From Gemmatimonadota bacterium (GTDB lineage: Bacteria; Gemmatimonadota; Gemmatimonadetes; Gemmatimonadales; Gemmatimonadaceae): DNA of 60,801 bases. Made by a program: the position numbers and the translations under genes. Positions within the stretch are counted from its first letter, which is position 1; each line of letters opens with the position of its first letter. Below, one piece after another: positions 12,383-60,335 of this stretch. Under the pieces are notes generated by a model, which saw nothing but the letters and a program-made list of their open reading frames with translations, was not told the DNA's origin and did no database searches. The stretch lies in contig JBBTFF010000050.1 of assembly GCA_038041995.1 (NCBI GenBank), positions 7,176 through 67,976 of the forward strand, written 5' to 3'.

Positions 12383-12500
12383 TGGGGAACGATTGCCTGG
12401 CGGGGCGCGGCGCGCCAGAGTGGGCGACTGCATCCCTCGACGGCTATCTTCCGCCATCCGGAGCCACGCCGGACTTTCCTCTGATCGACGCCCTGCCCTC

Positions 12501-27201: not shown

Positions 27202-27313
27202 TTGCTTCCCGAGCAACTCCAGCTTGCCTCCTGCCCAACACTATAGTTGCGCCGAGCGTAGCACACCGAGAGTCACATCGCTTCCACCCCGTTTCCTCCA
27301 GCCCTCACTCATT

Positions 27314-32833: not shown

Positions 32834-32849
32834 GCCACATATTACGGAA

Positions 32850-32918
32850 CCAGGGAGGACTTCGTTGCAGTCGTCCCTTCGTGCCCCTTCGTGTGCTTCG
32901 CGCCTTCGTGGTGTGCAG
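32850..32918. repeat. Family A element, half copy (right arm only)
   Basis: gtcgtcccttcgtgccccttcgtgtgcttcgcgccttcgtggtgtgcag is near-identical to the right arm of 39191..39334 (gtcatcttcgtgcccccctcgtgtccttcgcgccttcgtggtgagcag). It fills the 91-nt gap between two same-strand genes. Confidence 0.7.
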
Positions 32919-32924
32919 TACGAG

Positions 32925-34547: not shown

Positions 34548-34670
34548 TGTCGTACACGCTACTCACCTGCCCTCCGCGGAAGACTGGTCCTCCACGTGCC
34601 GAAGCTGGATGTTTATCCGGCGTTGCACCACATCGAACGCCCTGCTTCCTTCTTTGGTGCCCCACTGACA

Positions 34671-40602: not shown

Positions 40603-42036
40603 ATGTACTTCCAGCGCTTCTACGATACGCCGCTCGCCCAGGCGAGCTACCTCATCGGCTGCCAGGCCACCGGCGAGGCTGTCGTCGTCGACGCCAACCG
40701 TGACATCGCGCAGTACGTCGATGCGGCCGAGGCGCAGAAGCTGCGCATCACGCACGTCACCGAGACCCACATCCACGCCGACTATGTGTCGGGAAGTCGT
40801 GAGCTCGCCCACGCCGCGGGGGCGCAGCTGCTCCTGTCCGCCGAGGGCGGCCCCGATTGGCAGTACGCCTTTGCCGCCGCGTCGGAGGCGACGTTACTGC
40901 GCGATGGCAGTTCGTTCAATGTCGGCAACATCCGGATTGATGTCCTGCACACACCCGGACATACTCCCGAGCACATCTGCTTCGTGGTCACCGACGGAGC
41001 TGCCGCCAACGAGCCCATGGGCATCATCACCGGCGATTTCGTCTTCGTCGGCGACGTGGGGCGCCCTGATCTCCTTGAGAAGGCAGCCAAGGTCGAGGGC
41101 ACCATGGAAGCGGCGGCCCGCACCTTGCATGCATCGCTCGCCAGGTTCCGCACGCTCCCCGACTGGCTGCAGGTCTGGCCCGGACACGGTGCCGGTTCCG
41201 CCTGCGGCAAGGCGTTGGGCGCGATGCCCACCAGCACCGTGGGCTATGAGAAGCGCTTCAACTGGGGTCTCGAGCCGATGACCGAGGACCAATTCGTCCA
41301 GCGCGTCCTCGACGGCCAGCCTGAACCCCCCGCTTACTTCGCGCAGATGAAGCGCATCAACAGGGAAGGACCGACGCTCTTGCACGGCTTCCACCGTCCC
41401 GAGCGGCTGCCGGCGGCGCGACTTGGCAAGCTCATCGAAGGCGGCCATGTGGTGGTCGACACGCGACCGACGGCGACGTTCGCTCGTGCGCACGTCCCCG
41501 GCACTATCAACATCCCGCTCTACAGGTCGTTCAGCACCTGGGCCGGATGGCTGCTGCCATACGACCGCGATATCCATCTCATTGTCGACGATGAATCTCG
41601 TTCCCTCGACCAGGCCGTGCGCGACCTGGCGATGATCGGCCTGGATCGCATCGCCGGCGTCTTTGGCCACGATGCCGTTGGTGTGTGGGCACAGACAGCG
41701 GCCATTGAGACAATTGCACAAACGAGCGCCGCGGAGCTGCACGACACGCTCCTCCCGCGAGGCGTTGCCGTGATCGACGTGCGCAACCAGTCGGAGTGGG
41801 AGGCAGGCCATCTGCCTGGCGCCCACCACGTGCAGCTCGGTACGCTCGAGGCGCGCCTCGACGAAGTGCCGCGTGACGGCGTGGTGGTTGTGCACTGCCA
41901 GGGCGGGACGCGTTCGGCGATTGCCGCGTCGCTTCTTGCCGCCCGCGGTTATCGGAACGTCATCAACCTGCAGGGTGGGTACCAAGAGTGGGCGAATGCC
42001 GGCTACTCCGTGATCCGGGACGGAGCTCCTCGATGA
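40603..42036 (+). CDS. MBL-fold persulfide-dioxygenase-like enzyme fused to two rhodanese domains
   Basis: MBL motifs THVTETHIHADYVSG and HTPGHTPEH are present. The C-terminal rhodanese domains end with the active-site loop VVVVHCQGGTRSAIAASLL. Confidence 0.8.
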   Translation: MYFQRFYDTPLAQASYLIGCQATGEAVVVDANRDIAQYVDAAEAQKLRITHVTETHIHADYVSGSRELAHAAGAQLLLSAEGGPDWQYAFAAASEATLLRDGSSFNVGNIRIDVLHTPGHTPEHICFVVTDGAAANEPMGIITGDFVFVGDVGRPDLLEKAAKVEGTMEAAARTLHASLARFRTLPDWLQVWPGHGAGSACGKALGAMPTSTVGYEKRFNWGLEPMTEDQFVQRVLDGQPEPPAYFAQMKRINREGPTLLHGFHRPERLPAARLGKLIEGGHVVVDTRPTATFARAHVPGTINIPLYRSFSTWAGWLLPYDRDIHLIVDDESRSLDQAVRDLAMIGLDRIAGVFGHDAVGVWAQTAAIETIAQTSAAELHDTLLPRGVAVIDVRNQSEWEAGHLPGAHHVQLGTLEARLDEVPRDGVVVVHCQGGTRSAIAASLLAARGYRNVINLQGGYQEWANAGYSVIRDGAPR

Positions 42037-43199
42037 ACTTTCACGAGCGCGCGGTCTTTCCGCGCGGATTCCGCTGCGCCAGCCGCAATGTCGGCCTCAA
42101 ACCGAGCGCCCGCGACCTCACGCTCTTTGCCAGCGATGTCGACGCGGCCGCGGCCGCCGTTTTCACGCGCAACCAGTTTCCCGGCGCTCCCATCATCCTT
42201 GGCCGTGAGACCATCAAGGGCGGCGTGTTGCGTGCCATCATTGCCAACAGCAAGGTGAGCAACGTTGCCACCGGCGAGCGCGGGGTGGAGAACGCTCGGC
42301 GCATGGCCGCCTCGGCCGCCGCCGAGCTTGGCACCGAGGCGGGCAAGGTGCTCGTCAGCTCCACTGGTGTCATTGGCGTGCATCTCCCCGTGGAGAAGAT
42401 CGAGGCGGGCGTGCGCGGAATGGCCGCCGAGCTGCAGGACGATCCGCTGGTGGGCGCCGAAGGCATCATGACCACCGACACGCACCCCAAGGCGCTTTCG
42501 GCGACGGTTGGCGATGCGACCATCACCTGGGTAGCCAAGGGCTCTGGGATGATCGAGCCCAACATGGCCACCATGCTCGCCTACATCTTCACCGATGCCG
42601 CGCTTGACGCCGCCACGCTCGACCGCCTGCTACGCCGCGCGGTGGACGTGTCATTCAACATGCTGTCGGTGGACACCGACACCAGCACGTCCGACACCTG
42701 CGTCATCATGGCCAATGGGCTCGCCGGCGCGGTGGACGAGCAGGCGTTCTGCGACGCGCTCGTTGCCGGGTGCGTGCGGATGACCGAGATCCTCGCCCGC
42801 GATGGCGAGGGCGCCGAGCACCTGCTGCGCATCACGGTACGCGATGCGGCCTCGGAACGTGATGCGCGTGTGGTCGCCAAGTCGCTCGTGAACTCACCGC
42901 TCATCAAGACCATGGTGCACGGCGCCGATCCCAATGTCGGGCGCATCCTGATGGCCGTCGGCAAGTGCACCGATGTCCTCATCAGCGCCGCTCGCACGAA
43001 TGCGTGGGTCAACGGCTATCAGGTCGTCGGCAATGGCACGCGTCTCGAGTTCGACGACACCGTGGTGCGTGCCGCACTCGGCGTGGAAGTGGTGGATCTC
43101 GAGGTGTCGCTCGGTGTCGGCTCGGCGACGGCGCGCGCGTATGGCTGCGACCTGACGAAGGGCTACATCGACGAGAACGCCGCGTACTACTCGAGCTGA
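42033..43199 (+). CDS. argJ: Bifunctional glutamate N-acetyltransferase / amino-acid acetyltransferase ArgJ
   Basis: ATG 42033 overlaps the upstream stop (ATGA). FRCASRNVGLKPS, the self-cleavage site IEPNMATMLAYIFTDA and the terminal NAAYYS are all typical of ArgJ. Confidence 0.9.
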   Translation: MNFHERAVFPRGFRCASRNVGLKPSARDLTLFASDVDAAAAAVFTRNQFPGAPIILGRETIKGGVLRAIIANSKVSNVATGERGVENARRMAASAAAELGTEAGKVLVSSTGVIGVHLPVEKIEAGVRGMAAELQDDPLVGAEGIMTTDTHPKALSATVGDATITWVAKGSGMIEPNMATMLAYIFTDAALDAATLDRLLRRAVDVSFNMLSVDTDTSTSDTCVIMANGLAGAVDEQAFCDALVAGCVRMTEILARDGEGAEHLLRITVRDAASERDARVVAKSLVNSPLIKTMVHGADPNVGRILMAVGKCTDVLISAARTNAWVNGYQVVGNGTRLEFDDTVVRAALGVEVVDLEVSLGVGSATARAYGCDLTKGYIDENAAYYSS

Positions 43200-43229: not shown

Positions 43230-45446
43230 CTAGAGCGAGAACATCTGCGTGAACTTCACCACGATGCTCCGCCCCGGTGCCATGTGCTGGTCGGGCGTCG
43301 TGAAGCGCTGCTCGTTGTAGACGATGAACAGGTCGCTCAGCGGGTGGTGGATGACGTTGAAGCGCACGTTCGCGTTGAACTGGTGCGCCACCGGGTCGTA
43401 CTGGGTGAGCGCGTCCAGGAACATGTTCGTCGTGAACGAGTAGTTCGCGCGCCCCGTCAGGAGCGTCACGTCGAATTTCTCCCGCGGCCGGTCGAGCGCA
43501 ATGCGAGACTGCTGCACCGTACCGGCCACGCGGAACTGGTACGTGGGCCGCCACGTCACCGTCGCGTTCAGGGTCTTCTGGTTCCCCGTCCACAAGCCGC
43601 CGGTGGTGCCGGTGAACGCCAGCGACACCGGCTGGCTGAGGTCGGTGGTCCACTTCAGCATCCACTCATTCCATGCATAGCCGCCAGCCGCAATCGGCGG
43701 CGCCGTCTTGTCGTTGCGGTTCAGCCGGAACGGTGCCGTGATGTACTCGTAGCGCGGGTTCGCCGAGAGTTCGGTGTAGGATCCGTCATTGAAGAAGAAT
43801 GTCTGCCCGCTGTGCAGGTTCTTGCCGATCGTGCGCCCCGCCAGGTCCTCGTAGTAGTTCCACGTGAAGTGCGGGTGCAGCTCGCGGATGCCGTGCGCGC
43901 GCAGCCACGGCGAGCGCGGGCGCAGCCCAGCGTCCAGGAACCACTTGCGCACGTCGGTGCGGCGGTAGAAGCCGAGGTCGTCCTGGAATCCGTCGCCGAG
44001 GACGAGTGTCGCCGCCTTGACGTGGGCGTCCTTCCCTTCGTAGTTCAACGATGAACGCCACGAGTACTGGCCGCTGCCTTTTCCCGGCGTGCGCGTGAGC
44101 ACCCCGAACGAGTTCCAGTCGAGCTTGCCGAAGAACCGGATGTTGGCATCGAGTCCGCCCACGCGGTTCCAGTCGGCGGCGTGGGCGCCCCCCTCCCGGC
44201 TCATCAGCAGCAGTCCGATGTCCGAGCCGCTGCCGACGTTGCGGCGCAGCCGCAACGTCGAGTAGGTGTTGGCCGCCGTTCCCGCCGTTGGCTCTGTTCG
44301 CATCGCCAGCGCGCCCACGCCAAAGCCACCGGCCTTGCCCGTCAGCCGCACGCCGCCGGGAATGGTGATCGGCAATCCACCGCTCGTCAGCCCGACACGA
44401 CGGCTGAAGAACAGCAGCAGGTCTTCGTCGGGCGTAGGCGGCGCCTGCACACGGTTGTTCCGCGCCGCATCCCCCACGTAGAACACCCCGGAGTTCTCCA
44501 GGAAGAACTCGCGCTTCTCCGGAAAGAACTGAGAGAACTGCGTCAGGTTCACCTGCTGCTCATCGGCCTCCACCTGCGCAAAGTCGGGGTTTACCGTCGC
44601 ATCGAGCGTCAGTCCTGGTGTCACTCGCGCCTTCACGTCCACGCCGGCATCACCCGAGCTGCCGAACTCGCTGCCTCCGGTGGCACGCACCGACCGCGCC
44701 AGCGCGTAGGGCTTCACGCGCAGGTCGCGCGACGCACCTTCCGGATGCACCCCCTCGAGCGTGCCGGCCAGCGACAGGCGCGTCAGTGCGTACTCGCGCG
44801 GGATCGGCGCCCAGAAGGTGATCTCGTTCTTGCGCCGGATGCGCCGAGAGAAGTTGAGCCCCCACGTCTGGCTCTTTCCAGCGTCAAACCGCAGCGCGCG
44901 GAACGGAATGGCCATCTCGGCCACCCAGCCATCGGCCACCCGCCGGGTCTTCACCGTCCACACGGCGTCCCAACTCGTGTTGATCTCGCGTCCCTCGCTC
45001 GCCACCTGCCGGTCGGCGCGCGCCCCCTCGACGTTCGTGATGAAGACGTAGCCGTTGCGACGGTCGTGAAAGGTGTCAAGGATCACCTCGAAGTCGTCCT
45101 GGTCCTCTTCCTTGAAGTCCTTCTTGATGTCGTTCACCACCAGCCGCCCGGGCTCGCCGTCGTGCAGGTACGCACCGATGTACATGGCGTTGTCATCGAA
45201 CAGCACGCGAACCTCCGTGCGTTCCGTCGCCGGCGCGCCCGTGCTTGGCTCGCTCTGCACGAAGCCGTCCGCCACCGGTGCCGACTTCCATTCGACCTCA
45301 TCCAGCACGCCGTCCACGCGAATCGGGCGCGCCGTGGCGGTTGCCGTGAGTGTGCGAGGCCGCTGCTGGGGGACCTTCGACAAATCGGTCGTGCCCTGGA
45401 AGGCGCGACCGATCGCGAGCAGTGCAAGGAGGATCGACATGTTCAT
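43230..45446 (-). CDS. CBM9-like domain + DUF5916 beta-barrel protein (paralog of 30677..32833)
   Basis: ATG 45446 gives MNMSILLALLAIGRAFQG. N-terminal region: IRVDGVLDEVEWKSAPVADGFVQSEPSTGAPATERTEVRVLFDDNAMYIGAYL...DDFEVILDTFHDRRNGYVFITNVEG. It has a beta-rich C-terminus ending FTQMFSL. Confidence 0.7.
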   Translation of the reverse strand: MNMSILLALLAIGRAFQGTTDLSKVPQQRPRTLTATATARPIRVDGVLDEVEWKSAPVADGFVQSEPSTGAPATERTEVRVLFDDNAMYIGAYLHDGEPGRLVVNDIKKDFKEEDQDDFEVILDTFHDRRNGYVFITNVEGARADRQVASEGREINTSWDAVWTVKTRRVADGWVAEMAIPFRALRFDAGKSQTWGLNFSRRIRRKNEITFWAPIPREYALTRLSLAGTLEGVHPEGASRDLRVKPYALARSVRATGGSEFGSSGDAGVDVKARVTPGLTLDATVNPDFAQVEADEQQVNLTQFSQFFPEKREFFLENSGVFYVGDAARNNRVQAPPTPDEDLLLFFSRRVGLTSGGLPITIPGGVRLTGKAGGFGVGALAMRTEPTAGTAANTYSTLRLRRNVGSGSDIGLLLMSREGGAHAADWNRVGGLDANIRFFGKLDWNSFGVLTRTPGKGSGQYSWRSSLNYEGKDAHVKAATLVLGDGFQDDLGFYRRTDVRKWFLDAGLRPRSPWLRAHGIRELHPHFTWNYYEDLAGRTIGKNLHSGQTFFFNDGSYTELSANPRYEYITAPFRLNRNDKTAPPIAAGGYAWNEWMLKWTTDLSQPVSLAFTGTTGGLWTGNQKTLNATVTWRPTYQFRVAGTVQQSRIALDRPREKFDVTLLTGRANYSFTTNMFLDALTQYDPVAHQFNANVRFNVIHHPLSDLFIVYNEQRFTTPDQHMAPGRSIVVKFTQMFSL

Positions 45447-45610
45447 GCTGTAAGGTACGCGGTTGCGGCGCGAATTGCTGACCTGTGTCGCTCGTGTCCT
45501 CTCGCGCTTGCCGTCCGGCGCGCTTGTGTTCCTCTCCCGTCGCAATCTCGCATTCTCGCACCCTTTCGTTCTATCTTACAGAGAATGACATTCCCCACTT
45601 CGCACCACCA

Positions 45611-48600
45611 ATGAACCACAAGGCAGCGCCGGGGCTGCTTCACGAGTTCTTCACACGCGCGGCCCGTACGTGGCCACATCGGGTCGCCGTTGACGTCCCC
45701 CCCAGCCGCCTTCGCCCTGCACGCCATCGCACCACCTACGCCGAACTCGACCGGCAGTCCAATGCGCTGGCCCGTCGGCTCATGTCGTTCGTCACGGGCG
45801 AGTGCATCGTCGCCATTCTGCTCCCGCGGACGTCGGCGCATCTCTACGCAGCGCAGATCGGCGTGATGAAGGCGGGCGCCGCGTATACCTGCTTCGACCT
45901 CGCGTTTCCCGACGAGCGGCTGCGCGACACCATCGACGACGCGCGCCCGATGGCTCTCCTCACGGACGCTGCCGGTCGCGCCCGTGGCCTCGCCGCGGGT
46001 TTTCCGGCGAACCGCATCATCGATGTCATCGATGCACTCCACGCACACGGTGCGGCCGATCCTGCCCCTCGCCCCGCGTGGCTCGCTCCAGCGTCCCTCG
46101 CCTACGTCATCTACACGTCGGGCACAACCGGGCGCCCCAAGGGCGTGATGATCGAGCACCGGGGCATCAGCAACCTGGTGCAGTCCGATCATGAGACCTT
46201 CTGCCTCACCCCTGACGATCGCGTCGTGCAGGGTTCGTCCGCCGCCTACGACTCCTCCATCGAGGAGGCGTGGCTCGCGTTTGCCGCGGGGGCAGCCATC
46301 GTCGTGATGGACGAGGACGCTGCGCGACTTGGCCCGGATATCGTCGGCTGGCTGCGCGACGAGCGCGTCACGGTTTTCTGCCCGCCCCCCACGCTGCTTC
46401 GCGCCACGGGATGCGAAGACCCAGCGCGTGAACTGCCCGAACTCAAGCTGCTCTACGTCGGTGGCGAGGCGCTGCCGCAGGACGTCGCCGATCGCTGGGC
46501 CACGAGCTGTGCCCTGGTCAACGGCTACGGCCCCACCGAGTGTTCCGTCACCGTCACCCGCGAGCGCATCGCCGCCGGCAAGCCGGTCACCATCGGCACA
46601 CCGGTGCCGAACGTGCAGGCGTGGATCGTCGACGATGATCTTCAACCGGTCGACGACGGCGCCCAAGGTGAGCTCGTCCTCGGCGGCATCGCGCTCGCCC
46701 GCGGCTACTGGAACCAGCCGGACCTCACGGCCCAGCGATTTCCACACCACCCGACACTCGGCCGCATTTATCGCACCGGCGACATCGCCCAGCGCGATTC
46801 CGACGGCGCGCTGCTCTACTTCGGCCGCGGCGATGCACAGGTGAAGCTGCGCGGGTACCGCGTGGAACTGGGCGCCATCGAGTCGGCGCTGATCGCCTGC
46901 GACGGCGTGCGCGCCGCCGCGTGCGCCGTGCAGAATGGCGACGGCCGGCAGACGCTCGTCGCCTTTATCGTTCCCGAGGCGATGGTCCCAGTGCCCGCCG
47001 CGGTGGCGCTGCAGGATGCGCTGCGCGCCACCCTGCCGGAGTACATGATCCCGGCACGCATTGCCACCATCGAGACGCTGCCCACCTCCCTCAGCGGCAA
47101 GCTTGACCGTACGGCACTACCATTGCTCAACGGCACCGCGCCGTCATCCGCCGGGGTGGATGCCGCGCCGACCAATGCCGTGGAGCACGCCATTGCCGAT
47201 GCGGTAAGGCAGGTGCTCCGCCACGCGACGCTCCCTGGCACGTCCGAGGATTTCTTCACCGCGCTGGGCGGTGATTCGCTGAGTGCCGCCGAGTTGATCA
47301 CGAGACTTCGAGAAAATGCCCTGACCAACGCGCTCGATGTGCGCGATGTCTACGAGGCGCGTACCGTCGCTGCGCTCGCCCGGCGTGCACGACCGCGCGC
47401 CGCCAGCGGACCCATCGCCGCGCCGAAATCCCGCGCCAGCGTTCCCGTCGCGCGCACGACCGCCCTTCAGGCACTTTCGTTGCTGCGATCGCTGCTCGTG
47501 GCATCCGTGGCACTGTGGATCGGCGCGTTCCACGTGCTCCCCGTGGTCGTCAACCGTGTGGGACTCGTGCCGTCGGTCTTCCTTGCACCACCCTTAGCAT
47601 TCTTGCTGTTGCTCGTGTGGGCGCCAGTGGCCGTGATGCTCGCCGTCCTCGGCAAACGAACGCTCATCGGACGCTACACCGCGATGCGCGCTCCGGTGTG
47701 GGGCCCGTTCTACCTCCGTCACTGGCTGGTGCAACAGTCGGTGAAATCCGTCCCGTGGTGGCTGCTCGAGGGCACACAGTTCCAGGTGATGGCGCTTCGC
47801 GCGCTTGGCGCGCGCATTGGCCAGCGCGTGCATGTCCATCGCGGCGTCAACCTCACGCGAGGCGGATGGGACCTGCTCGATATCGGCAATGACGTCACGC
47901 TGTCGCAGGATTCCGCGCTTCGCATCGCCGAGCTCGACGATGGCCACGTCGTCTTCGGTCCGGTGACGCTGGGTGACGGCGTGACGCTCGGCATTCACGC
48001 AGGTGTCGGCAGCGACTGCGTACTCGAGGCCGGCGCCTCCCTTGCCAATAGTTCGTCGCTCCCGCGCGGCACGCGCGTTCCGGCCGGTGAATGCTGGGAC
48101 GGCATTCCGGCGCGCCCTGCGGGCCAGGCGGCGCAGACGCCGGCCATCGATACCTCACGCGATCTTTCACCGCTGGCGTGCGACGCGCTCCTGCTCGGCG
48201 CGCGTTTCCTCATGTCGCTCGCTTTCGCCGCGCCGCTCGGAATATTCGCACTGCTCGCCGTGCGCGCCTGGCACGTGGAGACGACCGAAGCCACCGCCTG
48301 GTTGCTTGGCAACGCAATCAGCTGGCGCATCCTCGCCGGCATCGCCCTGCTCGAGATGTTCGCCGTCCCGTCGCGTCTCGTGCTCGGCGCGCTTGCCTGC
48401 CGGGTAATGGGACGCGTCCCGGACGGTGTCTCGTCCCGCTGGAATGCCGGGTACCTGCGCATCTGGCTCAAGCCGATGCTCGTCGACGGCGCCTCTCGCT
48501 GGTTGTACGGCACGCTCTTCTGGCCGTACTGGCTGCGACTCTCCGGCATGACCGTGGGACGCGACTGCGAGATCAGCAGTCTTATCGACACCGTGCCCGA

Positions 48601-49588
48601 AACGGTCACGATCGGGGACAAGAATTTCTTCGCCGACGGCATCTACGTCGGTAGCCCCCAGCTGCACCGCGGTACCGTGCGTGTGGCGCATACGACGTTT
48701 GGCAGCAGCACCTTCCTCGGCAATGGCGCCATCATCGCCGGGGGAATGCAGCTTCCCGACGACATACTGCTCGGCGTCTGCACCGTGGCCCGGCAGCAGC
48801 ACCTTCGCTCGGGAAGCGCCTGGTTCGGCCACCCGGCCTTCGAACTCCCGCACCGCGAAGTCATCGAATACGACGCCGCTTTCACCTTCGATCCCACGCC
48901 GCTGCGCTATGCGACGCGCGTCTTCTGGGAACTATCGCGCTTCGTCGTCCCCGCATTGCCGGTCTTCGTGGCACTCCTCTGGTTCAAGATCATCGCCGGC
49001 TGGTCGGACGTCCCGTTTCCCGTGTTCATCCTCGGCGTCCTCCCGCTCGCCACGCTCGGTGCGAGCGCGCTCTTCGCCACGCTCATCGTCGTCTTCAAGT
49101 GGACGCTGCTCGGCAAGGTACAGCCCGCCATGCATCCGTTGTGGTCGTCGTGGGCCTCGCGGTGGGATCTCGTCTGCCTCGCCTGGAACGTCTGCGCCGG
49201 GTCGCTCGTGTCGCGGCTCGACGGCACGCTGCTGCTCAATGCCTTGCTGCGACTCACCGGCGTGCACATCGGCGAACGCGTCGTGTTGGGCACCGGATTC
49301 GCCGAGGACCTGCCCGACCCCGACATGCTCACGTTCGAGGACGGCGCCACGGTGGACTGCCTGTTCCAAGCGCACACGTTCGAGGATCGCGTCCTCAAGA
49401 TGGATCGCGTGGTCGTCCGCGCCGGCGCGACCGTCGGCAGCAACGCCGTGCTGCTGTACGGCGCCGACATTGGCGAAGGTGCACGCGTGGCGCCGCACAG
49501 CGTGGTCATGAAGCACGAGCACCTGCGCCCCGGAGTGCTCTACGCCGGCTTCCCCACGCGACCGCAGGACGACGTCACCGCCTGGTAA
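45611..49588 (+). CDS. Pls/PosA-type single-module NRPS: adenylation + carrier domain + polytopic membrane region with three hexapeptide-repeat (LbH-like) soluble domains
   Basis: ATG 45611 gives a 1325-aa product. A-domain cores: TYAELDRQSNALA, LAYVIYTSGTTGRPKGV, NGYGPTE, GELVLGGIALARGYW, YRTGDIA, GRGDAQVKLRGYRVELGAIE, LPEYMIP, LSGKLDR. Carrier site: FFTALGGDSLSAAELI. Hydrophobic helix pairs then alternate with three hexapeptide-periodic segments. No C, E or TE domain. Confidence 0.8.
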   Translation: MNHKAAPGLLHEFFTRAARTWPHRVAVDVPPSRLRPARHRTTYAELDRQSNALARRLMSFVTGECIVAILLPRTSAHLYAAQIGVMKAGAAYTCFDLAFPDERLRDTIDDARPMALLTDAAGRARGLAAGFPANRIIDVIDALHAHGAADPAPRPAWLAPASLAYVIYTSGTTGRPKGVMIEHRGISNLVQSDHETFCLTPDDRVVQGSSAAYDSSIEEAWLAFAAGAAIVVMDEDAARLGPDIVGWLRDERVTVFCPPPTLLRATGCEDPARELPELKLLYVGGEALPQDVADRWATSCALVNGYGPTECSVTVTRERIAAGKPVTIGTPVPNVQAWIVDDDLQPVDDGAQGELVLGGIALARGYWNQPDLTAQRFPHHPTLGRIYRTGDIAQRDSDGALLYFGRGDAQVKLRGYRVELGAIESALIACDGVRAAACAVQNGDGRQTLVAFIVPEAMVPVPAAVALQDALRATLPEYMIPARIATIETLPTSLSGKLDRTALPLLNGTAPSSAGVDAAPTNAVEHAIADAVRQVLRHATLPGTSEDFFTALGGDSLSAAELITRLRENALTNALDVRDVYEARTVAALARRARPRAASGPIAAPKSRASVPVARTTALQALSLLRSLLVASVALWIGAFHVLPVVVNRVGLVPSVFLAPPLAFLLLLVWAPVAVMLAVLGKRTLIGRYTAMRAPVWGPFYLRHWLVQQSVKSVPWWLLEGTQFQVMALRALGARIGQRVHVHRGVNLTRGGWDLLDIGNDVTLSQDSALRIAELDDGHVVFGPVTLGDGVTLGIHAGVGSDCVLEAGASLANSSSLPRGTRVPAGECWDGIPARPAGQAAQTPAIDTSRDLSPLACDALLLGARFLMSLAFAAPLGIFALLAVRAWHVETTEATAWLLGNAISWRILAGIALLEMFAVPSRLVLGALACRVMGRVPDGVSSRWNAGYLRIWLKPMLVDGASRWLYGTLFWPYWLRLSGMTVGRDCEISSLIDTVPETVTIGDKNFFADGIYVGSPQLHRGTVRVAHTTFGSSTFLGNGAIIAGGMQLPDDILLGVCTVARQQHLRSGSAWFGHPAFELPHREVIEYDAAFTFDPTPLRYATRVFWELSRFVVPALPVFVALLWFKIIAGWSDVPFPVFILGVLPLATLGASALFATLIVVFKWTLLGKVQPAMHPLWSSWASRWDLVCLAWNVCAGSLVSRLDGTLLLNALLRLTGVHIGERVVLGTGFAEDLPDPDMLTFEDGATVDCLFQAHTFEDRVLKMDRVVVRAGATVGSNAVLLYGADIGEGARVAPHSVVMKHEHLRPGVLYAGFPTRPQDDVTAW

Positions 49589-49602: not shown

Positions 49603-49637
49603 CAGAGCGCCCAAGCCGCTGCGGCCGGGGCGCTCTG
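49603..49637 (+). terminator. GC-rich hairpin after the NRPS gene, leading directly into a 10-bp repeat array
   Basis: CAGAGCGCCC (49603-49612) pairs with GGGCGCTCTG (49628-49637) across a 15-nt loop. It lies 15 nt after the stop. The 3' arm is also the first repeat unit of the array. Confidence 0.5.
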
Positions 49638-49703
49638 TCGCTTTCTGTCGTCTTCTGTCGTTCTCTGTCGTTCTCTGTCGTTCTCTGTCGTTCTCTGTCG
49701 TTC
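49633..49703 (+). repeat. 10-bp tandem repeat array, family B (core CTGTCGT), about 7 units
   Basis: The units read ctctgtcgct ttctgtcgtc ttctgtcgtt ctctgtcgtt (the last unit x4). The array ends 2 nt before the tRNA-Cys 3' end. Confidence 0.9.
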
Positions 49704-49705
49704 AG

Positions 49706-49777
49706 AGGCGCCGGTCGGGATCGAACCGACGGATGGGAGATTTGCAGTCTCCTGCCTTACCACTTGGCTACGGCGCC
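49706..49777 (-). tRNA. tRNA-Cys (anticodon GCA)
   Basis: The reverse complement GGCGCCGTAGCCAAGTGGTAAGGCAGGAGACTGCAAATCTCCCATCCGTCGGTTCGATCCCGACCGGCGCCT folds as a cloverleaf. It has a 7-bp acceptor stem, anticodon stem GGAGA/TCTCC with loop CTGCAAA, T-arm GTCGG-TTCGATC-CCGAC and discriminator U. No CCA is encoded. Confidence 0.9.
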
Positions 49778-49884: not shown

Positions 49885-52800
49885 ATGATCCGCCGCTTGA
49901 CGCTGTTTGCCCTCCTCGTCACCTCGTCCGCCTCAGCCCAGATGCGCCCCGCACCGGCCCCCAAGGCGATGCCGACCCCCACCGAGACGTCGCTCTTTGC
50001 GCACTTGCGCTACCGCAACGTGGGTCCCGCACGCGGCGGACGCGTCACCACCGTGACTGGCGTCCCCAGCCAGCCCCATACCTTCTTCATGGGGTCCACC
50101 GGCGGTGGCGTCTGGAAGACCACCGACGCGGGCCAGGGTTGGGTGAACATCTCCGACCGTTTCTTCGCCGTCGGCTCCATGGGCGCCATCGAGGTTGCCC
50201 CGTCCAACCCCGACATCATTTACGCGGGAACGGGTTCCGACGGGCTCCGGTCGAATGTCTCCATCGGCAACGGCGTCTACAAATCCACTGATGCGGGCCG
50301 CTCCTGGGCGCACGTCGGCCTCAAGGACGTCGGCAACATCGGCGGAATCCGCGTACATCCGGCCAATCCCGACATTGCTTTCGTGGCTGCCATAGGCAAC
50401 CCGTTCAGGCCCAGCAACGACCGTGGCCTGTACCGCACCACCGATGGCGGCACGTCGTGGCAGCGCATCCTCTTTGTGTCTGATTCCACAGGCGCCGTGG
50501 ACATCGAGTTCCAGCCGGGCAACCCGAACACGATCTACGCCTCGATGTGGCGCGCCGAGCGCAAGCCGTGGACCATCATCTCGGGCGCACGCGAAGGCGG
50601 CGTTTACAAGTCCACCGATGGGGGCGCCACCTGGAAGAAGCTCGAAGGCGGGCTCCCCAATGACCTCGTCGGCAAGAGCAACGTCGCCGTCACGCCCGCG
50701 GATCCGAACCTCGTCTGGGTCCTCATCGAGGCCAAGCCGGGCGGCGGACTCTACCGCTCCAACGACGCCGGCGAGTCGTTCACGCTGGCCAGCAACTATG
50801 CGCAGCTCATCACGCGCCCGTTCTACTACACCAACATCACGGCACACCCCAAGGACGCCAATACAGTGTGGGTCGGCGCCGAGGGTTTCCACAAGACCAC
50901 CGATGGCGGCAAGTCGTGGCGCGCGATGAACATCCCGCACGGCGACAACCATGACCTGTGGATCAACCCCAATGACCCGCAGCTGATGGTGCAGGCCAAC
51001 GACGGCGGAGCCACTGTCACGATCAACGGTGGACGCACCTGGTCCACCCTGTACAACCAGCCCACCGCCGAGATCTACCAGGTGTACGTGGACAACCAGT
51101 TCCCGTACCGCCTGTACGGCGCCCAACAGGACAACTCCACGCTCATCGTGCCGTCACTCCCGCTGTCGTCGGGGCGCCCCGACTCGCCCATGCAGGAGTG
51201 GATGAGCGGGCCCGGCTGCGAGACGGGGCCGATCTTCCCGCACCCCACCAATCCCGACACCGTCTACGGCTCGTGCAAGGGACAGTTCTCGCGTCTGCGC
51301 ATCAGCAGCGGCGCGGAGAAGCAGTACTGGGTCGGGGCGCAGTCGCTGTACGGCAACGCCACGCAGGACCTCATCTATCGCTTTCAGCGCGTTTCGCCCA
51401 TGGAGTACTCGCCGCACGACGCGCGCGTCATCTACTATGGCTCGCAGTACGTGCACCGCACGCGTGACGAAGGCGTCACCTGGGAGCGCATCTCTCCCGA
51501 CCTCACCTCGAATCCACCCGAACTCCGCACCCATTACAGCGGTGAGCCAATCACCGTGGACGGCACCGGCGAGGAGTCGTACTCCACGCTCTACGCCATT
51601 CGTGAGGCCACGCTCGAGAAGGGTGTGATCTGGACAGGCGCGAACGATGGCCCGTTCCACGTCACCCGCGATGACGGCAAGTCGTGGAAGAATATCACGC
51701 CGAAGAACCAGCCCGCCGGCTGCCGCGTGCAGAACATCGAGCCATCGCCCCATCGTCGCGGCTCAGCCTACTACGCCGTCCTCTGCTACCTGCTCGGCGA
51801 CTTCAAGCCGTACCTCTGGCGTACAGACGACTACGGTGCCTCGTGGACGCTGCTCACCGACGGCAGCAACGGCATTGCCGCCAACGAGCCGACACGCGTC
51901 GTGCGCGAGGATCCGAAGCGTGAAGGGCTTCTTTACGCCGGCACCGAGTTCGGCATGTACGTGTCGTTCGACAACGGCGCGCGCTGGCGGTCGTTCCAGC
52001 TCAACCTCCCGGCGACGCCGATCACCGATATGAAGGTCCACCGCGACGATCTCGTGCTGTCCACGCAGGGTCGCTCGTTCTGGATTCTCGACAACCTCAC
52101 CGCACTGCACCAACTCGCGTCCAACACCGCCACCGAGAGCGCGCACCTTCTTGCGCCGCGCGACGCCGTGCGGGCGCCGTACTCGGGTTCCTTTGGCGGC
52201 GTCGAGGGCAGCCGCAATGACCCGGCCGACCCGCAGTATCCGCCGGCTGGCGCCATGATCGACTACTGGATCGCGCCGGCCCTTGCCGGCCCGGTCACCC
52301 TGGAAGTTCTCGACGCCAGAGGCGTCGTCGTGCGGTCCTTCTCCAGCGAAGGTGCCGGCGAAACGGCTACCACCGAGCCGAGCATGTGCCAGATGATCAC
52401 CGTCCGCGACGGCGCACCACGCCTCCCGCGCAACCCGGGCATGAACCGCTTCACGTGGGACCTCACCCTCCCCGGCGCATGGTCGATGATCGCCGCGCAG
52501 AGCGGTCGCAATGGCCCCACCATCGTCCCCGGCAGGTACCAGGTGCGCCTCACCGCCGGCACCACGACCGTCGCGCAGTCGCTGACCGTGCGCATCGATC
52601 CGCGTGCAGCTGCCGACGGAATCACGATCGCCGACTTGCAGGCGCAGTACGATCACAACGTGAAAGTCCGCAACCTCGTGACCGAGGTGAATCGCCTCGT
52701 CGCCACGCTCGACGAGCAACGTCGGCGTCTCGCCGGTGCGGGTGCTACGGCCGCTGACACCGTGCGCGGCATCAATGCCTTGCGCGCCACCGTCGTCACA

Positions 52801-53001
52801 CCACCGGTGCGCTACAGCAGGCCGGCGCTGCAGTCACACATTCAGTACCTCTACTGCCTCACGTCACAGGCTGACCAGCGCATCGGCCGCGATGCCACCG
52901 AACGCTACGTGACCCTTCGCCAGGAACTGGACATCACCATGGCCAGGGCCCGTGCCCTCCTGGGAGCCAGCGTCATCGACAAGACCAGAGTGGTGCCGTG
53001 A
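49885..53001 (+). CDS. Sortilin/VPS10-like BNR (Asp-box) repeat protein, secreted (paralog of 27314..30499)
   Basis: ATG 49885 gives signal peptide MIRRLTLFALLVTSSASAQ. Asp-boxes: KTTDAGQGW, STDAGRSWA, TTDGGTSWQ, STDGGATWK, TTDGGKSWR, TINGGRTWS, TRDDGKSWK. The 49099.. ORF extension overlaps the NRPS gene and the tRNA. Confidence 0.8.
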   Translation: MIRRLTLFALLVTSSASAQMRPAPAPKAMPTPTETSLFAHLRYRNVGPARGGRVTTVTGVPSQPHTFFMGSTGGGVWKTTDAGQGWVNISDRFFAVGSMGAIEVAPSNPDIIYAGTGSDGLRSNVSIGNGVYKSTDAGRSWAHVGLKDVGNIGGIRVHPANPDIAFVAAIGNPFRPSNDRGLYRTTDGGTSWQRILFVSDSTGAVDIEFQPGNPNTIYASMWRAERKPWTIISGAREGGVYKSTDGGATWKKLEGGLPNDLVGKSNVAVTPADPNLVWVLIEAKPGGGLYRSNDAGESFTLASNYAQLITRPFYYTNITAHPKDANTVWVGAEGFHKTTDGGKSWRAMNIPHGDNHDLWINPNDPQLMVQANDGGATVTINGGRTWSTLYNQPTAEIYQVYVDNQFPYRLYGAQQDNSTLIVPSLPLSSGRPDSPMQEWMSGPGCETGPIFPHPTNPDTVYGSCKGQFSRLRISSGAEKQYWVGAQSLYGNATQDLIYRFQRVSPMEYSPHDARVIYYGSQYVHRTRDEGVTWERISPDLTSNPPELRTHYSGEPITVDGTGEESYSTLYAIREATLEKGVIWTGANDGPFHVTRDDGKSWKNITPKNQPAGCRVQNIEPSPHRRGSAYYAVLCYLLGDFKPYLWRTDDYGASWTLLTDGSNGIAANEPTRVVREDPKREGLLYAGTEFGMYVSFDNGARWRSFQLNLPATPITDMKVHRDDLVLSTQGRSFWILDNLTALHQLASNTATESAHLLAPRDAVRAPYSGSFGGVEGSRNDPADPQYPPAGAMIDYWIAPALAGPVTLEVLDARGVVVRSFSSEGAGETATTEPSMCQMITVRDGAPRLPRNPGMNRFTWDLTLPGAWSMIAAQSGRNGPTIVPGRYQVRLTAGTTTVAQSLTVRIDPRAAADGITIADLQAQYDHNVKVRNLVTEVNRLVATLDEQRRRLAGAGATAADTVRGINALRATVVTPPVRYSRPALQSHIQYLYCLTSQADQRIGRDATERYVTLRQELDITMARARALLGASVIDKTRVVP

Positions 53002-54647: not shown

Positions 54648-56855
54648 ATGAACGCTCGCGCCGCCGCCCTCAAGGCCATCGCCTCGCGCGTGGTCACGCC
54701 CCCCGACATTCCTTCCACGCACGAAAACGGGCTGCCGATTTCGCACTACTTCGGTTCGCTTACGTTCGGCGTGCGTCAGATGCGTGACAAGCTCCCCAAG
54801 GAGGTGTTCGCGAAGATCAACAGCGCCGTCCGCCTCGGCAGGAAGCTCGATCTCGACATTGCGCCGACGGTCGCCAAGGTCATCAAGGAATGGGCGATGT
54901 CGCATGGAGTCACCCACTTCTGCCACTGGTTCCAGCCGCAGACGGGGCTCACCGCCGAGAAGCACGACGCGTTCTTCTCGTTCGATGAGAACAAGCTCCC
55001 CATGGAGGCGTTCACCGGCGAGCAGCTCATCCAGAGCGAGCCCGATGCGTCGTCGTTCCCGTCGGGCGGACTGCGCGCCACGTGGGAAGCGCGCGGCTAC
55101 ACCGCGTGGAACCCGGCGTCGCCCGTCTTCATCATGGAGTCGGCGGGTACCAAGACGCTCTGCATCCCGTCGGTCTTCATCGGCTACAACGGCGAGGCGC
55201 TCGACGAGGTCACCCCGCTCCTTCGGTCGTCCGACGTCCTTTCCCACAAGTCGATGGAACTCCTCGAGCTACTCGGCGACAATGGCGCGCTGCGCGTCTA
55301 CACCACGATGGGCGCCGAACAGGAGTACTTCCTGATCGATCGCGGGCACTTCGCCCTGCGACCCGACCTCGTGATGGGCGGCCGCACGCTCATCGGCGCG
55401 CCGCCGCCGCGCGGCCAGCAGCTCGAGGACCACTACTTCGGCGGCATTCCCGAGCGCGTGCAGGGCTGCATCGCCGAGGTCGAGTACGAGCTCTATCGCC
55501 TGGGCGTCCCGATCGTCACGCGTCACAACGAAGTGGCCCCGTGCCAGTTCGAGATGGCGCCGGTGTTCGAAGAGACCGACATTGCCGTCGACCACAACCA
55601 GCTGGTCATGGCGATCCTCCGCAAGGTTGCCGCGCGCCACGGCCTCACCGCCCTGCTGCACGAGAAACCCTTCGCCGGCATCAATGGCTCGGGCAAGCAC
55701 TGCAACTGGTCCATGTCTATCGCCTCGGACAACGAGCTCGACGGCGTCAACCTGCTCAAGCCGGGCAAGACGCCGCACCAGAACCTGCGCTTCCTCCTGT
55801 TCCTTGCCGCCGTCCTCAAGGGCGTTCACAAGCACCAGGGGCTGCTGCGCGCGGGCGTCGCCACGTCGGGCAACGAGCATCGTCTCGGCGCCAATGAGGC
55901 GCCGCCGGCCATCATCTCCGTGTTCCTCGGTTCGATGCTCACCAACATGATCGAGGACATCATCGCCGGACGCACGGGCACCAGCGCCGAGCAGGCCATG
56001 ATCAAGCTGGGTGTCGCCAAGCTCCCCGAGATCTCCAAGGACAACACCGACCGCAACCGAACGTCGCCGCTCGCTTTCACCGGCGCCAAGTTCGAGTTCC
56101 GTGCCGTCGGCTCGTCGCAGTCCATCGCCTTCCCGGTGATGATCTTCAATGCCATCGTTGCCGAGGCCATTGGCGAGTTGATCGCGTCGCTGAAAGCCGA
56201 GATGAAGAAGACCAAGTCCGTCGATGACGCGGTGCTGCGGGTCGTGAAGGAGGCCTTCAAGGAGACCACGACCATTCGGTTCGAGGGCAACGGCTACGCG
56301 CCGGAGTGGGTCAGGGAGGCCAAGCGGCGCGGCCTTCTCAACCTGCGCGGCACGCCCGAGGCGCTCGACCAGATCAACGCCAGGACCACCAAGGCGCTGT
56401 TCATCACGCTGGGCATTCTCACGCCGCCGGAACTCGAGAGCCGCTATCACATCCGGGTCGAGCGGTACCTCAAGGACATGCTCATCGAGATGCACACCAT
56501 GCGCGAGCTCATCGACACCATGGTGCTGCCGGCCGCGCTCAAGTACCTCGGCGTGCTGGCCGACGCGGCGCAGAAGTCCAAGGCCGTCGGCATCCGGGTC
56601 AATCCCGCGACCGTCGCCGCCACGGCGTTCGCCAGGCAGGTCACCGACCTGCAAAAGCGCGCCGCCGCGCTCCGCACCGCCGCGGACAAGGCCGATACCA
56701 TGCACCACACGCCGTCCAGGTGCGCGCAATTCCTCACCTCCACGGGCGCCGACGCCATGGCCGCCGCGCGCGAAGTCTCGGACGCAATCGAGTTGACGAT
56801 GGGTGACGAGTACTGGCCGTTGCCGCGCTACCGGGAGATGGTGTTTCCGGTGTAA
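54648..56855 (+). CDS. glnN: Glutamine synthetase type III
   Basis: 735 aa. The N-terminus ...HYFGSLTFGVRQMRDKLPKEVFAKI...IKEWAMSHGVTHFCHWFQPQTGLTAEKHDAFF, plus NEVAPCQFEMAP and KPFAGINGSGKHCNWS, are GSIII hallmarks. Confidence 0.9.
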   Translation: MNARAAALKAIASRVVTPPDIPSTHENGLPISHYFGSLTFGVRQMRDKLPKEVFAKINSAVRLGRKLDLDIAPTVAKVIKEWAMSHGVTHFCHWFQPQTGLTAEKHDAFFSFDENKLPMEAFTGEQLIQSEPDASSFPSGGLRATWEARGYTAWNPASPVFIMESAGTKTLCIPSVFIGYNGEALDEVTPLLRSSDVLSHKSMELLELLGDNGALRVYTTMGAEQEYFLIDRGHFALRPDLVMGGRTLIGAPPPRGQQLEDHYFGGIPERVQGCIAEVEYELYRLGVPIVTRHNEVAPCQFEMAPVFEETDIAVDHNQLVMAILRKVAARHGLTALLHEKPFAGINGSGKHCNWSMSIASDNELDGVNLLKPGKTPHQNLRFLLFLAAVLKGVHKHQGLLRAGVATSGNEHRLGANEAPPAIISVFLGSMLTNMIEDIIAGRTGTSAEQAMIKLGVAKLPEISKDNTDRNRTSPLAFTGAKFEFRAVGSSQSIAFPVMIFNAIVAEAIGELIASLKAEMKKTKSVDDAVLRVVKEAFKETTTIRFEGNGYAPEWVREAKRRGLLNLRGTPEALDQINARTTKALFITLGILTPPELESRYHIRVERYLKDMLIEMHTMRELIDTMVLPAALKYLGVLADAAQKSKAVGIRVNPATVAATAFARQVTDLQKRAAALRTAADKADTMHHTPSRCAQFLTSTGADAMAAAREVSDAIELTMGDEYWPLPRYREMVFPV

Positions 56856-58865: not shown

Positions 58866-60335
58866 TCAGTACTTCCCAAGATACTGCGCCAGCTCCCACT
58901 CGCTCACCTGCGTCACGTAGTCGCGCCATTCCTGGCGCTTGGCGTCCAGGAAGTGCCGGGTCACGTGTTCGCCGAGTGCCGCGCAGATTTCCTTGTCCTT
59001 CTCCAGCTCGTCACACGCTTCGTTCAGGTCATGCGGCAGGTCGTCGATGCGCAGGCGCCGTTTCTCCCGGAAGCTCATCTCCCAGATGTTCTCGTTCACC
59101 GGCTCGCGGCTCGACGCCTGCGTCTCGATGCCGTCCAGGCCGGCAGCCAGCATCACCGCCAGCGCCAGGTAGGGATTCGCACTCGGGTCGGGAGATCGCA
59201 GCTCGGCGCGCGTCCCCGCACCGCGGCGAGCCGGCACCCGAACGAGCGGCGAGCGATTGCGCATGGACCACGCCACGTTTACCGGCGCCTCGAAGCCAGG
59301 CACCAGCCGCTTGTACGAGTTCACCAGCGGGTTGGTGATCGCGCACATGCCGCGTGCATGCTGCAGCAACCCGCCGATGTAATGGTGCGCCACCGACGAC
59401 AGCTCGTACTCCCCCTTCGCGTCGTAGAAGGCGTTCTGCCCGTCCTTGAACAGCGACTGGTGGGTGTGCATCCCGCTGCCGTTCTGGCCGTAGATGGGCT
59501 TGGGCATGAACGACGCGTGCAGTCCGAACTGCTGCGCCACGTTGCGCACCACGAACCGGAAGGTCGCCAGCGCGTCGGCCGTGGTCAGCGCGTCGGCGTA
59601 CCGGAAGTCGATCTCGTGCTGGCCGTGCGCCACTTCATGGTGCGACGCCTCGATCTCGAAGCCCATCTGCTCCAGCGCATCGACGATCGCGCGCCGCGCC
59701 TCCTCGCCCAGATCCACCGGCGTCAGGTCGAAATAGCTTCCCACGTCGTGTGTCGTCGTGCTCGGCGTGCCGTCGGGACCCAGGCGGAACATGAAGAACT
59801 CCGCCTCCATCCCGGCAAACATCGTGTACCCCAGCCTGGCCGCGCGATCCACCTGTCGCTTGAGCACGAGGCGCGGGTCGCCGGCGAACGGCTCCCCCTC
59901 CGGCGTGGTGATGTCGCAGATCAGGCGCGCCACGCGGGCCTGCGGGTCGCTCCACGGGAAGATGCGGAAGGTGTCGAGTTCGGGACGCAACAGCATGTCG
60001 CTCTCTTCCACGCGCACGAAACCCTCGATCGACGACCCGTCGAACAGGATGTCGCCGGCCAGCGCCTTCTTCAGCTGGGACACCGGGATCTCGACATTCT
60101 TGTTGACACCGAGGATGTCGGTGAACTGCAGGCGGAGAAAGCGAACGCGGTGCCGCTCGGTGAGCTCGAGCAGGTCCTTGGCGGTCACACCTCGCAGGTC
60201 GCTGAGCAGGGCGCGGGACGAAGCAGTCACGAAAGGCGGAGGCGGAGATCGGGGTCCAGGGGGTTTGTGGCGTTCCAGCCGGAACTGTAGAGTTTGGGCG
60301 CCAGCGCGCGCCGCCGCAATGCGTCGCGTGCCCAT
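58866..60335 (-). CDS. glnA: Glutamine synthetase type I
   Basis: VRFLRLQFTDILGVNKNVEIP...FDGSSIEGF...MFAGMEAEFF, KPIYGQNGSGMHTHQS and NPYLALAVMLAAGLDGI are GSI hallmarks. The start is uncertain: ATG 60335 (489 aa) or GTG 60230 (454 aa, closer to typical GSI length). Confidence 0.88.
   Translation of the reverse strand: MGTRRIAAARAGAQTLQFRLERHKPPGPRSPPPPFVTASSRALLSDLRGVTAKDLLELTERHRVRFLRLQFTDILGVNKNVEIPVSQLKKALAGDILFDGSSIEGFVRVEESDMLLRPELDTFRIFPWSDPQARVARLICDITTPEGEPFAGDPRLVLKRQVDRAARLGYTMFAGMEAEFFMFRLGPDGTPSTTTHDVGSYFDLTPVDLGEEARRAIVDALEQMGFEIEASHHEVAHGQHEIDFRYADALTTADALATFRFVVRNVAQQFGLHASFMPKPIYGQNGSGMHTHQSLFKDGQNAFYDAKGEYELSSVAHHYIGGLLQHARGMCAITNPLVNSYKRLVPGFEAPVNVAWSMRNRSPLVRVPARRGAGTRAELRSPDPSANPYLALAVMLAAGLDGIETQASSREPVNENIWEMSFREKRRLRIDDLPHDLNEACDELEKDKEICAALGEHVTRHFLDAKRQEWRDYVTQVSEWELAQYLGKY

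Follow-up and report, generated by a model that had tools for sequence, protein, structure and literature searches.

Pls, the epsilon-poly-L-lysine synthetase of Streptomyces, is a protein of about 1320 aa in which an adenylation (A) domain and a carrier (T) domain precede six transmembrane (TM) segments in three pairs and three left-handed beta-helix (LbH) domains, and PosA of Acinetobacter baumannii has the same architecture. The side-chain amine of lysine allows a chain to grow through isopeptide bonds, whereas arginine offers none. In 2023, Patel & Gulick (Commun Biol; PMC10522769) flagged two uncharacterised homologues of the cationic homopolyamino acid (CHPA) synthetases, Bdellovibrionales OFZ39577.1 ('Bdello_A') and Novosphingobium WP_072382105.1, both of which carry the ten-residue specificity code DSECYGGVTK. 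We found the same code and the same A-T-terminal-domain design in a 1325-aa protein encoded by a stretch of 60,801 nt from a Gemmatimonadota bacterium (assembly GCA_038041995.1, contig JBBTFF010000050.1, positions 7,176 to 67,976; hereafter the window). Here we place this synthetase among its relatives, compare its pocket and its membrane domain with those of the described enzymes, and weigh what it may make.

The 3978-nt frame of the gene is uninterrupted. An alternative GTG start is present upstream, at 45485, in the list of open reading frames (ORFs); because 120 homologues of 1320-1360 aa cover 99-100% of the 1325-aa product, and because the database copy of the protein is also 1325 aa long, we take the ATG at 45611 as the start. 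Pfam recognises AMP-binding (residues 14-367), AMP-binding_C (423-497), PP-binding (527-592) and Hexapep in the product, and these matches, together with the position of the GGDSL motif, bear out the full adenylation domain and the carrier serine codon at 47276-47278 that a sequence-only reading of this DNA had described. Pfam and NCBIfam scans of the whole protein find no condensation, epimerase, reductase or thioesterase domain, none of which had been expected from that reading.

Upon comparison with the NCBIfam model TIGR02353, residues 619-1315 align over model positions 2-694 of 695 (E 7.6e-111, 371.6 bits), so that residues ~600-1325 resemble the model from end to end. Because the score lies below the curated cut-off of 423.1 bits, the protein falls outside the curated Pls/PosA family. 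Our canonical controls came from plasmid records and comprise a PGAP-named epsilon-poly-L-lysine synthase, the A. baumannii PosA locus and four proteins named 'Pls/PosA family'; five of these (Pls, PosA, Sphingomonas, M. avium and Streptomyces NBC_01527, with Azospirillum left out) score 548-773 bits, Pls reaching 675 and PosA 725 against 372 for the window protein. Other members of the window branch score 359 bits (the Streptomyces plasmid gene) and 343 bits (the Horticoccus gene), and PGAP names branch members just 'amino acid adenylation domain-containing protein'. The identity of the window protein to canonical proteins is 34-39% in the A-T region and 26-30% in the C-terminal domain (36% and 28% for Pls, 34% and 26% for PosA), and it shares 48-66% with branch members of other phyla. 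Trees of the A domain and of the C-terminal domain (neighbour-joining, no bootstrap) both put it in a monophyletic sister group to the canonical proteins, and C-terminal identity shows a step, being at least 34% inside the branch and at most 32% to canonical members. The window protein lies on the inner side of this step and carries the branch-type motifs FFADGIY and FQAHTFEDR. By these comparisons it is a protein of Pls-type architecture in the Pls/PosA superfamily that belongs to a separate sister subfamily outside the curated family; of the earlier designation as a Pls/PosA-type membrane nonribosomal peptide synthetase (NRPS), the architecture stands and the curated family membership does not. 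The A domain itself scores 379 bits on TIGR01733 (amino-acid adenylation; cut-off 317 bits), and its top solved relatives are NRPS A domains rather than fatty-acyl ligases. A fatty-acyl-AMP ligase or acyl-CoA synthetase was considered and rejected, the acyl-CoA ligase models scoring far under their cut-offs and Asp235 being kept.

The specificity code was extracted by anchoring on the A4, A5 and A10 motifs, followed by multiple alignment, and reads D214 S215 E218 C257 Y282 G284 G305 V313 T314 K497, which is identical to the code derived by hand in the sequence-only reading (D235 S236 E239 C278 Y299 G301 G322 V330 T331 K517). The extraction is valid, since the PGAP-annotated Pls and the A. baumannii PosA gave DAESIGTVVK and DMEHNGTVSK, the published Lys and Orn codes (PMC10522769). 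That reading had been unable to assign the code to any substrate, a statement that is overtaken by its earlier publication with an L-Arg-preferring homologue (PMC10522769). In that work the isolated Bdellovibrionales A domain gave 3.24, 2.79 and 3.23 assay units with L-Arg (~3.1), ~0.66 with Lys, ~0.29 with Orn and ~0.06 for the blank, and was inactive with diaminopropionic acid (Dap), diaminobutyric acid (Dab), beta-Lys and citrulline (PMC10522769). The assayed protein prefers L-Arg with modest activity, and the window protein comes from another phylum and is known from its sequence. The window A domain is ~49% identical to the Bdellovibrionales construct over 319 residues, an approximate figure obtained by chaining ungapped pieces against codon-optimised DNA from the supplement that was damaged by optical character recognition, and the pocket-forming stretches are near-identical. 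D235 and the conserved cation-binding Glu E239, which are common to all CHPA synthetases (PMC10522769), are retained as D214 and E218.

Exact DSECYGGVTK is found in 114 of 120 close homologues. An exhaustive search returned 2670 matches at E<=1e-3 and 461 at E<=1e-30, and we surveyed the code more widely in the full-length 50%-cluster representatives among its best 150 matches. Among representatives with at least 34% C-terminal identity, the window protein counted, 32 of 39 carry the exact code and 5 more differ from it at one position. All representatives at or below 32% have canonical Lys, Orn, beta-Lys (DGESISVVNK by the same extraction) or DFE-type codes, the last of which have been assigned to Dap/Dab (PMC10522769), and the window code matches none of these diamino-acid codes. 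As judged from these alignments, the type of the C-terminal domain and the A-domain pocket vary together as a unit. P0182 (1349 aa) is the chief exception, in which a branch C-terminal domain (46% identity) is joined to the Dap-like code DFEALGTVTK in what is apparently a natural A-domain swap between the subfamilies; P0230 departs from DSECYGGVTK too. Because the code is kept down to 34% C-terminal identity, the alignments indicate that the branch is under strong selection for one substrate.

We observe six hydrophobic segments in the C-terminal region by hydropathy, in three pairs (~618-647/655-682, 855-885/902-930 and 1104-1132/1138-1168), and the same six TM segments appear in an AlphaFold2 (AF2) model. 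Each of the three soluble segments (694-836, 994-1087 and 1222-1320) matches solved hexapeptide (LbH) proteins, in agreement with the hexapeptide periodicity noticed earlier, and C1, C2 and C3 are mutually homologous, with hhalign probabilities of 96.7-99.4% in profile-profile comparison. The AF2 model of residues 612-1325, built from a 64-sequence alignment, has a mean pLDDT (predicted local distance difference test) of 90.1 and a pTM (predicted template modelling score) of 0.91, and consists of three blocks, in each of which a pair of long helices leads through a short helical linker into a beta-helical segment. The best Foldseek matches, one repeat each, are trimeric LbH acyltransferases (maltose, galactoside and serine acetyltransferases) and gamma-carbonic-anhydrase-like proteins; sequence search and Foldseek against the PDB return single LbH domains only and no solved structure of a whole Pls-type C-terminal domain. 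Because the three repeats are homologous, the C-terminal domain is, on the sequence and the predicted model, an internal triplication that would form a single-chain version of the LbH trimer. Patel & Gulick inferred the same single-chain trimer for PosA from their own model and describe its C-terminal domain as six bent helices under three packed left-handed beta-helices (PMC10522769), a layout with which the predicted secondary structure of the window model agrees. Maltose and galactoside O-acetyltransferases and serine acetyltransferase, whose fold C1, C2 and C3 match in both sequence and structure, pack three beta-helices as a quaternary arrangement, whereas the window protein has them in one polypeptide; it further differs in that its repeats are non-equivalent, a TM hairpin precedes each of them, and the donor is a tethered carrier and not acyl-CoA. 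Lys plus Arg number 2-4 on the flanks near A-T and C1-C3, against 0-1 in the short loops that join the helices of the three pairs. Because of this charge pattern, the positive-inside rule predicts A, T and C1-C3 all on the cytoplasmic side.

Upon alignment of the C-terminal domains, 44 residues are invariant between the window branch and genuine Pls/PosA proteins, including Q1253, H1255, D1259, F1006, A1008 and D1009. The C2 motifs FxAD (F1006, A1008, D1009) and FxGN (F1035, G1037, N1038) are invariant superfamily-wide, and in the C3 motif QAHTFEDR, which corresponds to QxHxFxDR in Pls, Q1253, H1255 (nt 49373-49375) and D1259 are shared with Pls and PosA. In the alignment of the three repeats the histidine is kept in C3 only, and His1255 is likely, by analogy with LbH acyltransferases, to be the candidate general base. 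The C1 motifs RVHVHRGV and GGWDLL are invariant in the window branch and missing from Pls and PosA. In the A domain, Asp235, Glu239 and Lys517 are common to the window protein and Pls (PGAP-annotated example at L088, 1973-5932; PosA at L089, 1943-5941). Pls differs further in being followed by an M1 metallopeptidase gene, of which there is none at the window gene; the other canonical controls stand beside a phosphopantetheinyl transferase (PPTase) with a GNAT, a cysteine-synthase-family enzyme, or a diaminobutyrate transaminase with an aspartate kinase, and canonical loci of this kind carry genes for precursors.

These features suggest a scheme that follows Pls. The A domain would adenylate a cationic L-amino acid, most probably L-arginine or a close analogue, as identity of the code at ten of ten positions with the assayed homologue suggests, and the aminoacyl group would pass to a thioester on the phosphopantetheine of Ser556, the motifs for which are intact. 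By analogy with Pls, the predicted pseudo-trimeric LbH domain, with His1255 of C3 as likely base, would then catalyse attack on the thioester by the amine of a freely diffusing acceptor, at the start a monomer and later the growing chain, and repeated rounds would build up a short, arginine-type polycation (oligomer or polymer) for release from the cell. The gene codes for an intact, NRPS-like synthetase of a single module that is anchored in the membrane and predicted to face the cytoplasm, and the chances seem to us evenly balanced that it works by the Pls scheme with arginine or an arginine-like cation as its monomer.

Several points weigh against this arginine-polymerising synthetase. The guanidino group is a poor nucleophile, and the reaction would call for an alpha-peptide linkage or a different acceptor; we know of no enzyme of this class that forms an ordinary peptide bond via the alpha-amine. 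Arginine, if it is the substrate, lacks a primary amine on its side chain, which means that the isopeptide route of the canonical enzymes may not be taken for granted, and 'homopolymer' is itself our inference. The C-terminal domain scores below the curated cut-off (371.6 against 423.1 bits) at 26-30% identity to Pls/PosA, and because of this score, this low identity and the branch-specific invariant C1 residues the acceptor site may differ from that of Pls/PosA. The role of His1255 is proposed by sequence analogy. Among the ORFs scanned between 13.9 and 60.3 kb of the window there is no PPTase, peptidase partner or polymer hydrolase, or exporter near the synthetase, which agrees with the earlier description of the gene as solitary. 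No branch member has a product on record, and our full-text search of open-access papers and preprints found nothing on the branch or on a poly-arginine synthetase beyond Patel & Gulick 2023, who themselves call the Arg activity modest and suspect a larger analogue as the true substrate (PMC10522769).

Two alternatives stem from the missing side-chain amine of arginine. In one, the enzyme class is the same but the true substrate would be a methylated 'onium' amino acid of greater bulk (S-methylmethionine, for example, or lysine or arginine methylated on nitrogen), with activation of Arg as promiscuity, which would fit the modest activity and the 'larger analog' proposed for the Bdellovibrionales domain (PMC10522769). 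Tyr299 and Gly322 would, in our reading of the pocket, suit a bulky cationic head group. Clustering of ORFs around 81 distinct related loci revealed no universally conserved accessory gene, and in 22 of the 81, from many phyla, a SET-domain gene of ~190 aa lies directly upstream of the synthetase, often with a 4-nt overlap and translational coupling (L003 9435-10004, L080 5473-6090, L066 5536-6102, L095 6001-6537 and 18 other loci). In P0072 the SET domain is fused N-terminally to the synthetase (residues 24-114), and in the tree this fusion protein is placed next to P0050, a member from Blastocatellia. The best solved relative of the SET protein is BurB (9l4t, E 3.2e-10), ahead of histone methyltransferases at ~1e-6 or worse, and BurB is a SET enzyme that converts free L-Met to the sulfonium S-methylmethionine (PMC12542666). 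Against this, the ten-residue code is identical in lineages with and without SET, and tblastn finds no SET homologue in the 60.8-kb window, in any Gemmatimonadota locus or in the other recovered Blastocatellia loci, so that, if SET makes the substrate, the SET-less lineages would have to encode it at another site. The SET protein might just as well modify the product; a database search with it gave 57 matches, and SET relatives at 43-44% identity are not linked to the synthetase. We treat the SET partner as a lead for the branch and not as evidence on the window locus, and an onium substrate here strikes us as decidedly unlikely.

The second alternative that follows from a guanidine unable to act as the canonical chain-extending nucleophile is an aminoacyl transferase rather than a polymerase, which would make a single arginyl-type transfer to a membrane lipid, envelope glycan or polyamine by a Dlt/MprF-like logic; we consider it unlikely, though worth keeping in mind. 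The DltA/DltC/DltB system, an analogue for this alternative only, likewise combines adenylation, a phosphopantetheinyl carrier and membrane transfer to add positive charge, but uses separate proteins, D-Ala, a single transfer rather than polymerisation, and an MBOAT transferase without homology to the LbH repeats. Such a role would account for the C1 motifs of the branch (RVHVHRG, GGWDLL) and for a Gemmatimonadota gene that behaves like part of the backbone, with its ArgJ, synthetase, tRNA-Cys and BNR order, native composition and no self-resistance or hydrolase gene. Envelope-type partners occur in some relatives: a PMT_2 glycosyltransferase abuts the synthetase in L001, an adjacency limited to one genome lineage, and Pls-type variants of ~1700 aa have, at the C terminus, an additional membrane domain of acyltransferase type (HGSNAT_cat/DUF418, AT3-like). 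This fusion occurs in the window branch (P0178, P0188, P0190, P0194) and also in canonical P0300 (beta-lysine code) and P0285 (uncharacterised DFE-type code), which suggests a shared downstream handling, export or attachment step; because canonical members carry it too, it does not discriminate, and we rejected it as a branch-specific hint of envelope modification. The 44 residues in common with proven polymerases and the want of any conserved neighbour pointing to an acceptor also speak against a transferase. An ordinary epsilon-poly-L-lysine, delta-poly-L-ornithine or poly-Dab/Dap synthetase in a Gemmatimonadota genome would share the A-T-6TM-C1C2C3 layout, the length, D235 and E239, but is very improbable given a code unlike those for Lys, Orn, beta-Lys and the DFE type, an identical-code homologue that preferred Arg, with weak activation of Lys and none of Orn, Dap or Dab (PMC10522769), a sister-clade position in both trees and a TIGR02353 score below the cut-off that the canonical controls pass. 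That accessory genes and a PPTase are not in view nearby might point to a decaying or non-functional relic, which is extremely improbable in view of the uninterrupted frame with all core motifs, the full-length orthologues at 66-92% identity in conserved synteny across Gemmatimonadota, and a pocket code that is invariant over deep divergence.

The synthetase is widely distributed. Its closest homologues (66-92% identity, full length) are found in Gemmatimonadota metagenome-assembled genomes (MAGs), followed by a tier at 53-57% in Blastocatellia, other Acidobacteriota and Verrucomicrobiota. A pattern scan with one genome per species finds relatives encoded in at least 371 species genomes, and the best 80 of the 371 include Planctomycetota, Armatimonadota, several proteobacterial orders and Actinomycetota. 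The branch spans seven phyla, and of the 85 full-length cluster representatives found in the best 150 matches ~40 belong to it; together with PosA being from Acinetobacter, this dates the earlier view that characterised members come mainly from Streptomyces. Cultured carriers are Lentzea terrae NEAU-LZS 42, Horticoccus sp. 23ND18S-11, and Streptomyces sp. NBC_00060 with three related strains, in which the gene is plasmid-borne. On the linear plasmid of NBC_00060 (L087), at least three tandem hypothetical genes of 458-460 aa follow the synthetase (8095-9471, 9517-10893 and 11295-12677), for which we find no Pfam match, and a PucR-type regulator and a trypsin-like protein precede it. In a Blastocatellia-like MAG subgroup (L021, L035, L040, L041, L052, L057 and similar), a 524-aa AMP-binding (acyl-CoA-ligase-like) gene lies upstream and a secreted class-A beta-lactamase-family gene lies 42 nt downstream.

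The features of the window locus are collected in Table 1, and the divergent DUF5916 gene on one side and the hairpin, repeat array and tRNA-Cys on the other were all located where the sequence-only reading had put them.

Table 1. The synthetase gene, its domains and its flanking features in the window (positions of the 60,801-nt stretch; a point marks a feature without strand)
Feature	Position	Strand	Basis
Synthetase gene, 1325 aa, A-T-[TM hairpin+LbH]x3	45611..49588 (incl. stop codon)	+	ORF translation, Pfam, NCBIfam, homologue alignment
Adenylation domain, residues 14-497	45650..47101	+	Pfam, TIGR01733; code extraction with Pls and PosA controls
Carrier (PP-binding) domain, residues 527-592; GGDSL Ser556 at nt 47276-47278	47189..47386	+	Pfam, motif position
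Transmembrane hairpin 1, residues ~613-685	47447..47665	+	Hydropathy; AF2 helices at fragment positions 2-39 and 41-74
C1 soluble repeat, helical linker and predicted left-handed beta-helix, residues ~686-853	47666..48169	+	Fold matches, AF2, repeat homology
Transmembrane hairpin 2, residues ~854-932	48170..48406	+	Hydropathy, AF2
C2 soluble repeat with predicted left-handed beta-helix, residues ~933-1096	48407..48898	+	Fold matches, AF2, repeat homology
Transmembrane hairpin 3, residues ~1097-1166	48899..49108	+	Hydropathy, AF2
C3 soluble repeat with predicted left-handed beta-helix, residues ~1167-1325	49109..49585	+	Pfam, fold matches, AF2, repeat homology
Divergent upstream gene, CBM9 and DUF5916 domains	43230..45545	-	Domain scan; not conserved beside the synthetase in relatives
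ArgJ (ornithine acetyltransferase, arginine biosynthesis)	41988..43199	+	Upstream of the synthetase and in its orientation at 10 Gemmatimonadota loci (synteny)
GC-rich hairpin, 15 nt past the stop codon, probably a terminator	49603..49637	+	-29.9 kcal/mol, z -2.7
Tandem array, 10-bp unit CTCTGTCGTT x7.1, 91% matches	49633..49703	.	Between hairpin and tRNA
tRNA-Cys (GCA)	49705..49777	-	Conserved downstream landmark, 9/10 related Gemmatimonadota loci

The neighbourhood is conserved across Gemmatimonadota, with TauE and ArgJ upstream and tRNA-Cys, a sortilin/BNR protein and a Na/sulfate symporter downstream, and variable DNA lies in the intervals between ArgJ and the synthetase and between the synthetase and the tRNA. 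The latter ranges from 76 nt to ~5.5 kb in relatives and holds the PMT_2 glycosyltransferase in L001; because of this variable length and this insertion, we regard the interval beside the tRNA as prone to insertions. We find no compositional anomaly at the synthetase, whose base composition and GC3 are native. This native composition and the conserved synteny rule out recent horizontal acquisition or an island, and because of them we conclude that the synthetase is vertically inherited within Gemmatimonadota. Given the Arg assay, ArgJ upstream is suggestive, yet it is inseparable from plain phylum-level synteny and a functional link is putative; we do not take ArgJ, the BNR protein, tRNA-Cys, or the PMT_2, AMP-ligase and beta-lactamase-like neighbours of relatives as functional partners of the window gene. 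An Rfam scan near the synthetase finds the tRNA alone and no regulatory RNA, and a sigma-70 consensus scan finds nothing above chance, a consensus that is uninformative for this phylum.

Further genes of the window were recorded alongside. A 976-aa protein with Peptidase_S51, serine beta-lactamase-type and BNR domains is encoded at 34596-37526 (+), some 8 kb ahead of the synthetase, and a Gemmatimonadaceae relative (L001 1-1114) has it at the syntenic place; Peptidase_S51 is the cyanophycinase/dipeptidase E family, and the substrate of cyanophycinase is an Arg-containing polymer. Two paralogous pairs encode large, presumably secreted proteins, sortilin/BNR at 27224-30499 (+) and ~49886-53001 (+), and DUF5916(/CBM9) at 30677-33076 (-) and 43230-45545 (-), and one paralogue of each pair flanks the synthetase. 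Two glutamine synthetases, GSIII at 54648-56855 (+) and GSI at 58866-60335 (-), lie <4 kb apart.

The architecture of the protein is known and its code was flagged in 2023, and the window gene has orthologues by the hundred; the new ground is the question of what is made by a large branch that has diverged deeply, is tightly constrained and is common in under-studied phyla. We would tentatively suggest, with more doubt than belief, that the branch makes a never-isolated polycation, arginine-based (guanidinium) or, in SET-bearing lineages, methyl-onium, with a linkage unlike side-chain isopeptides, as a common and vertically inherited trait. If so, the polycation would belong to phyla that abound in soil and freshwater (Gemmatimonadota, Acidobacteriota, Verrucomicrobiota, Planctomycetota) and would not be a rare actinomycete antibiotic, and the cultured carriers make the question of substrate and product directly testable. 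Polycations of the polylysine type are used to preserve food and in cell-penetrating or antimicrobial materials, and to our knowledge the natural polycations of this type known so far are all made from diamino acids. Should the branch polymerise arginine or a related cation, no natural source of such a polymer would precede it, and its linkage chemistry would be new to the class; should it decorate the envelope instead, poorly studied phyla would prove to modify their surface with positive charge by a new route.

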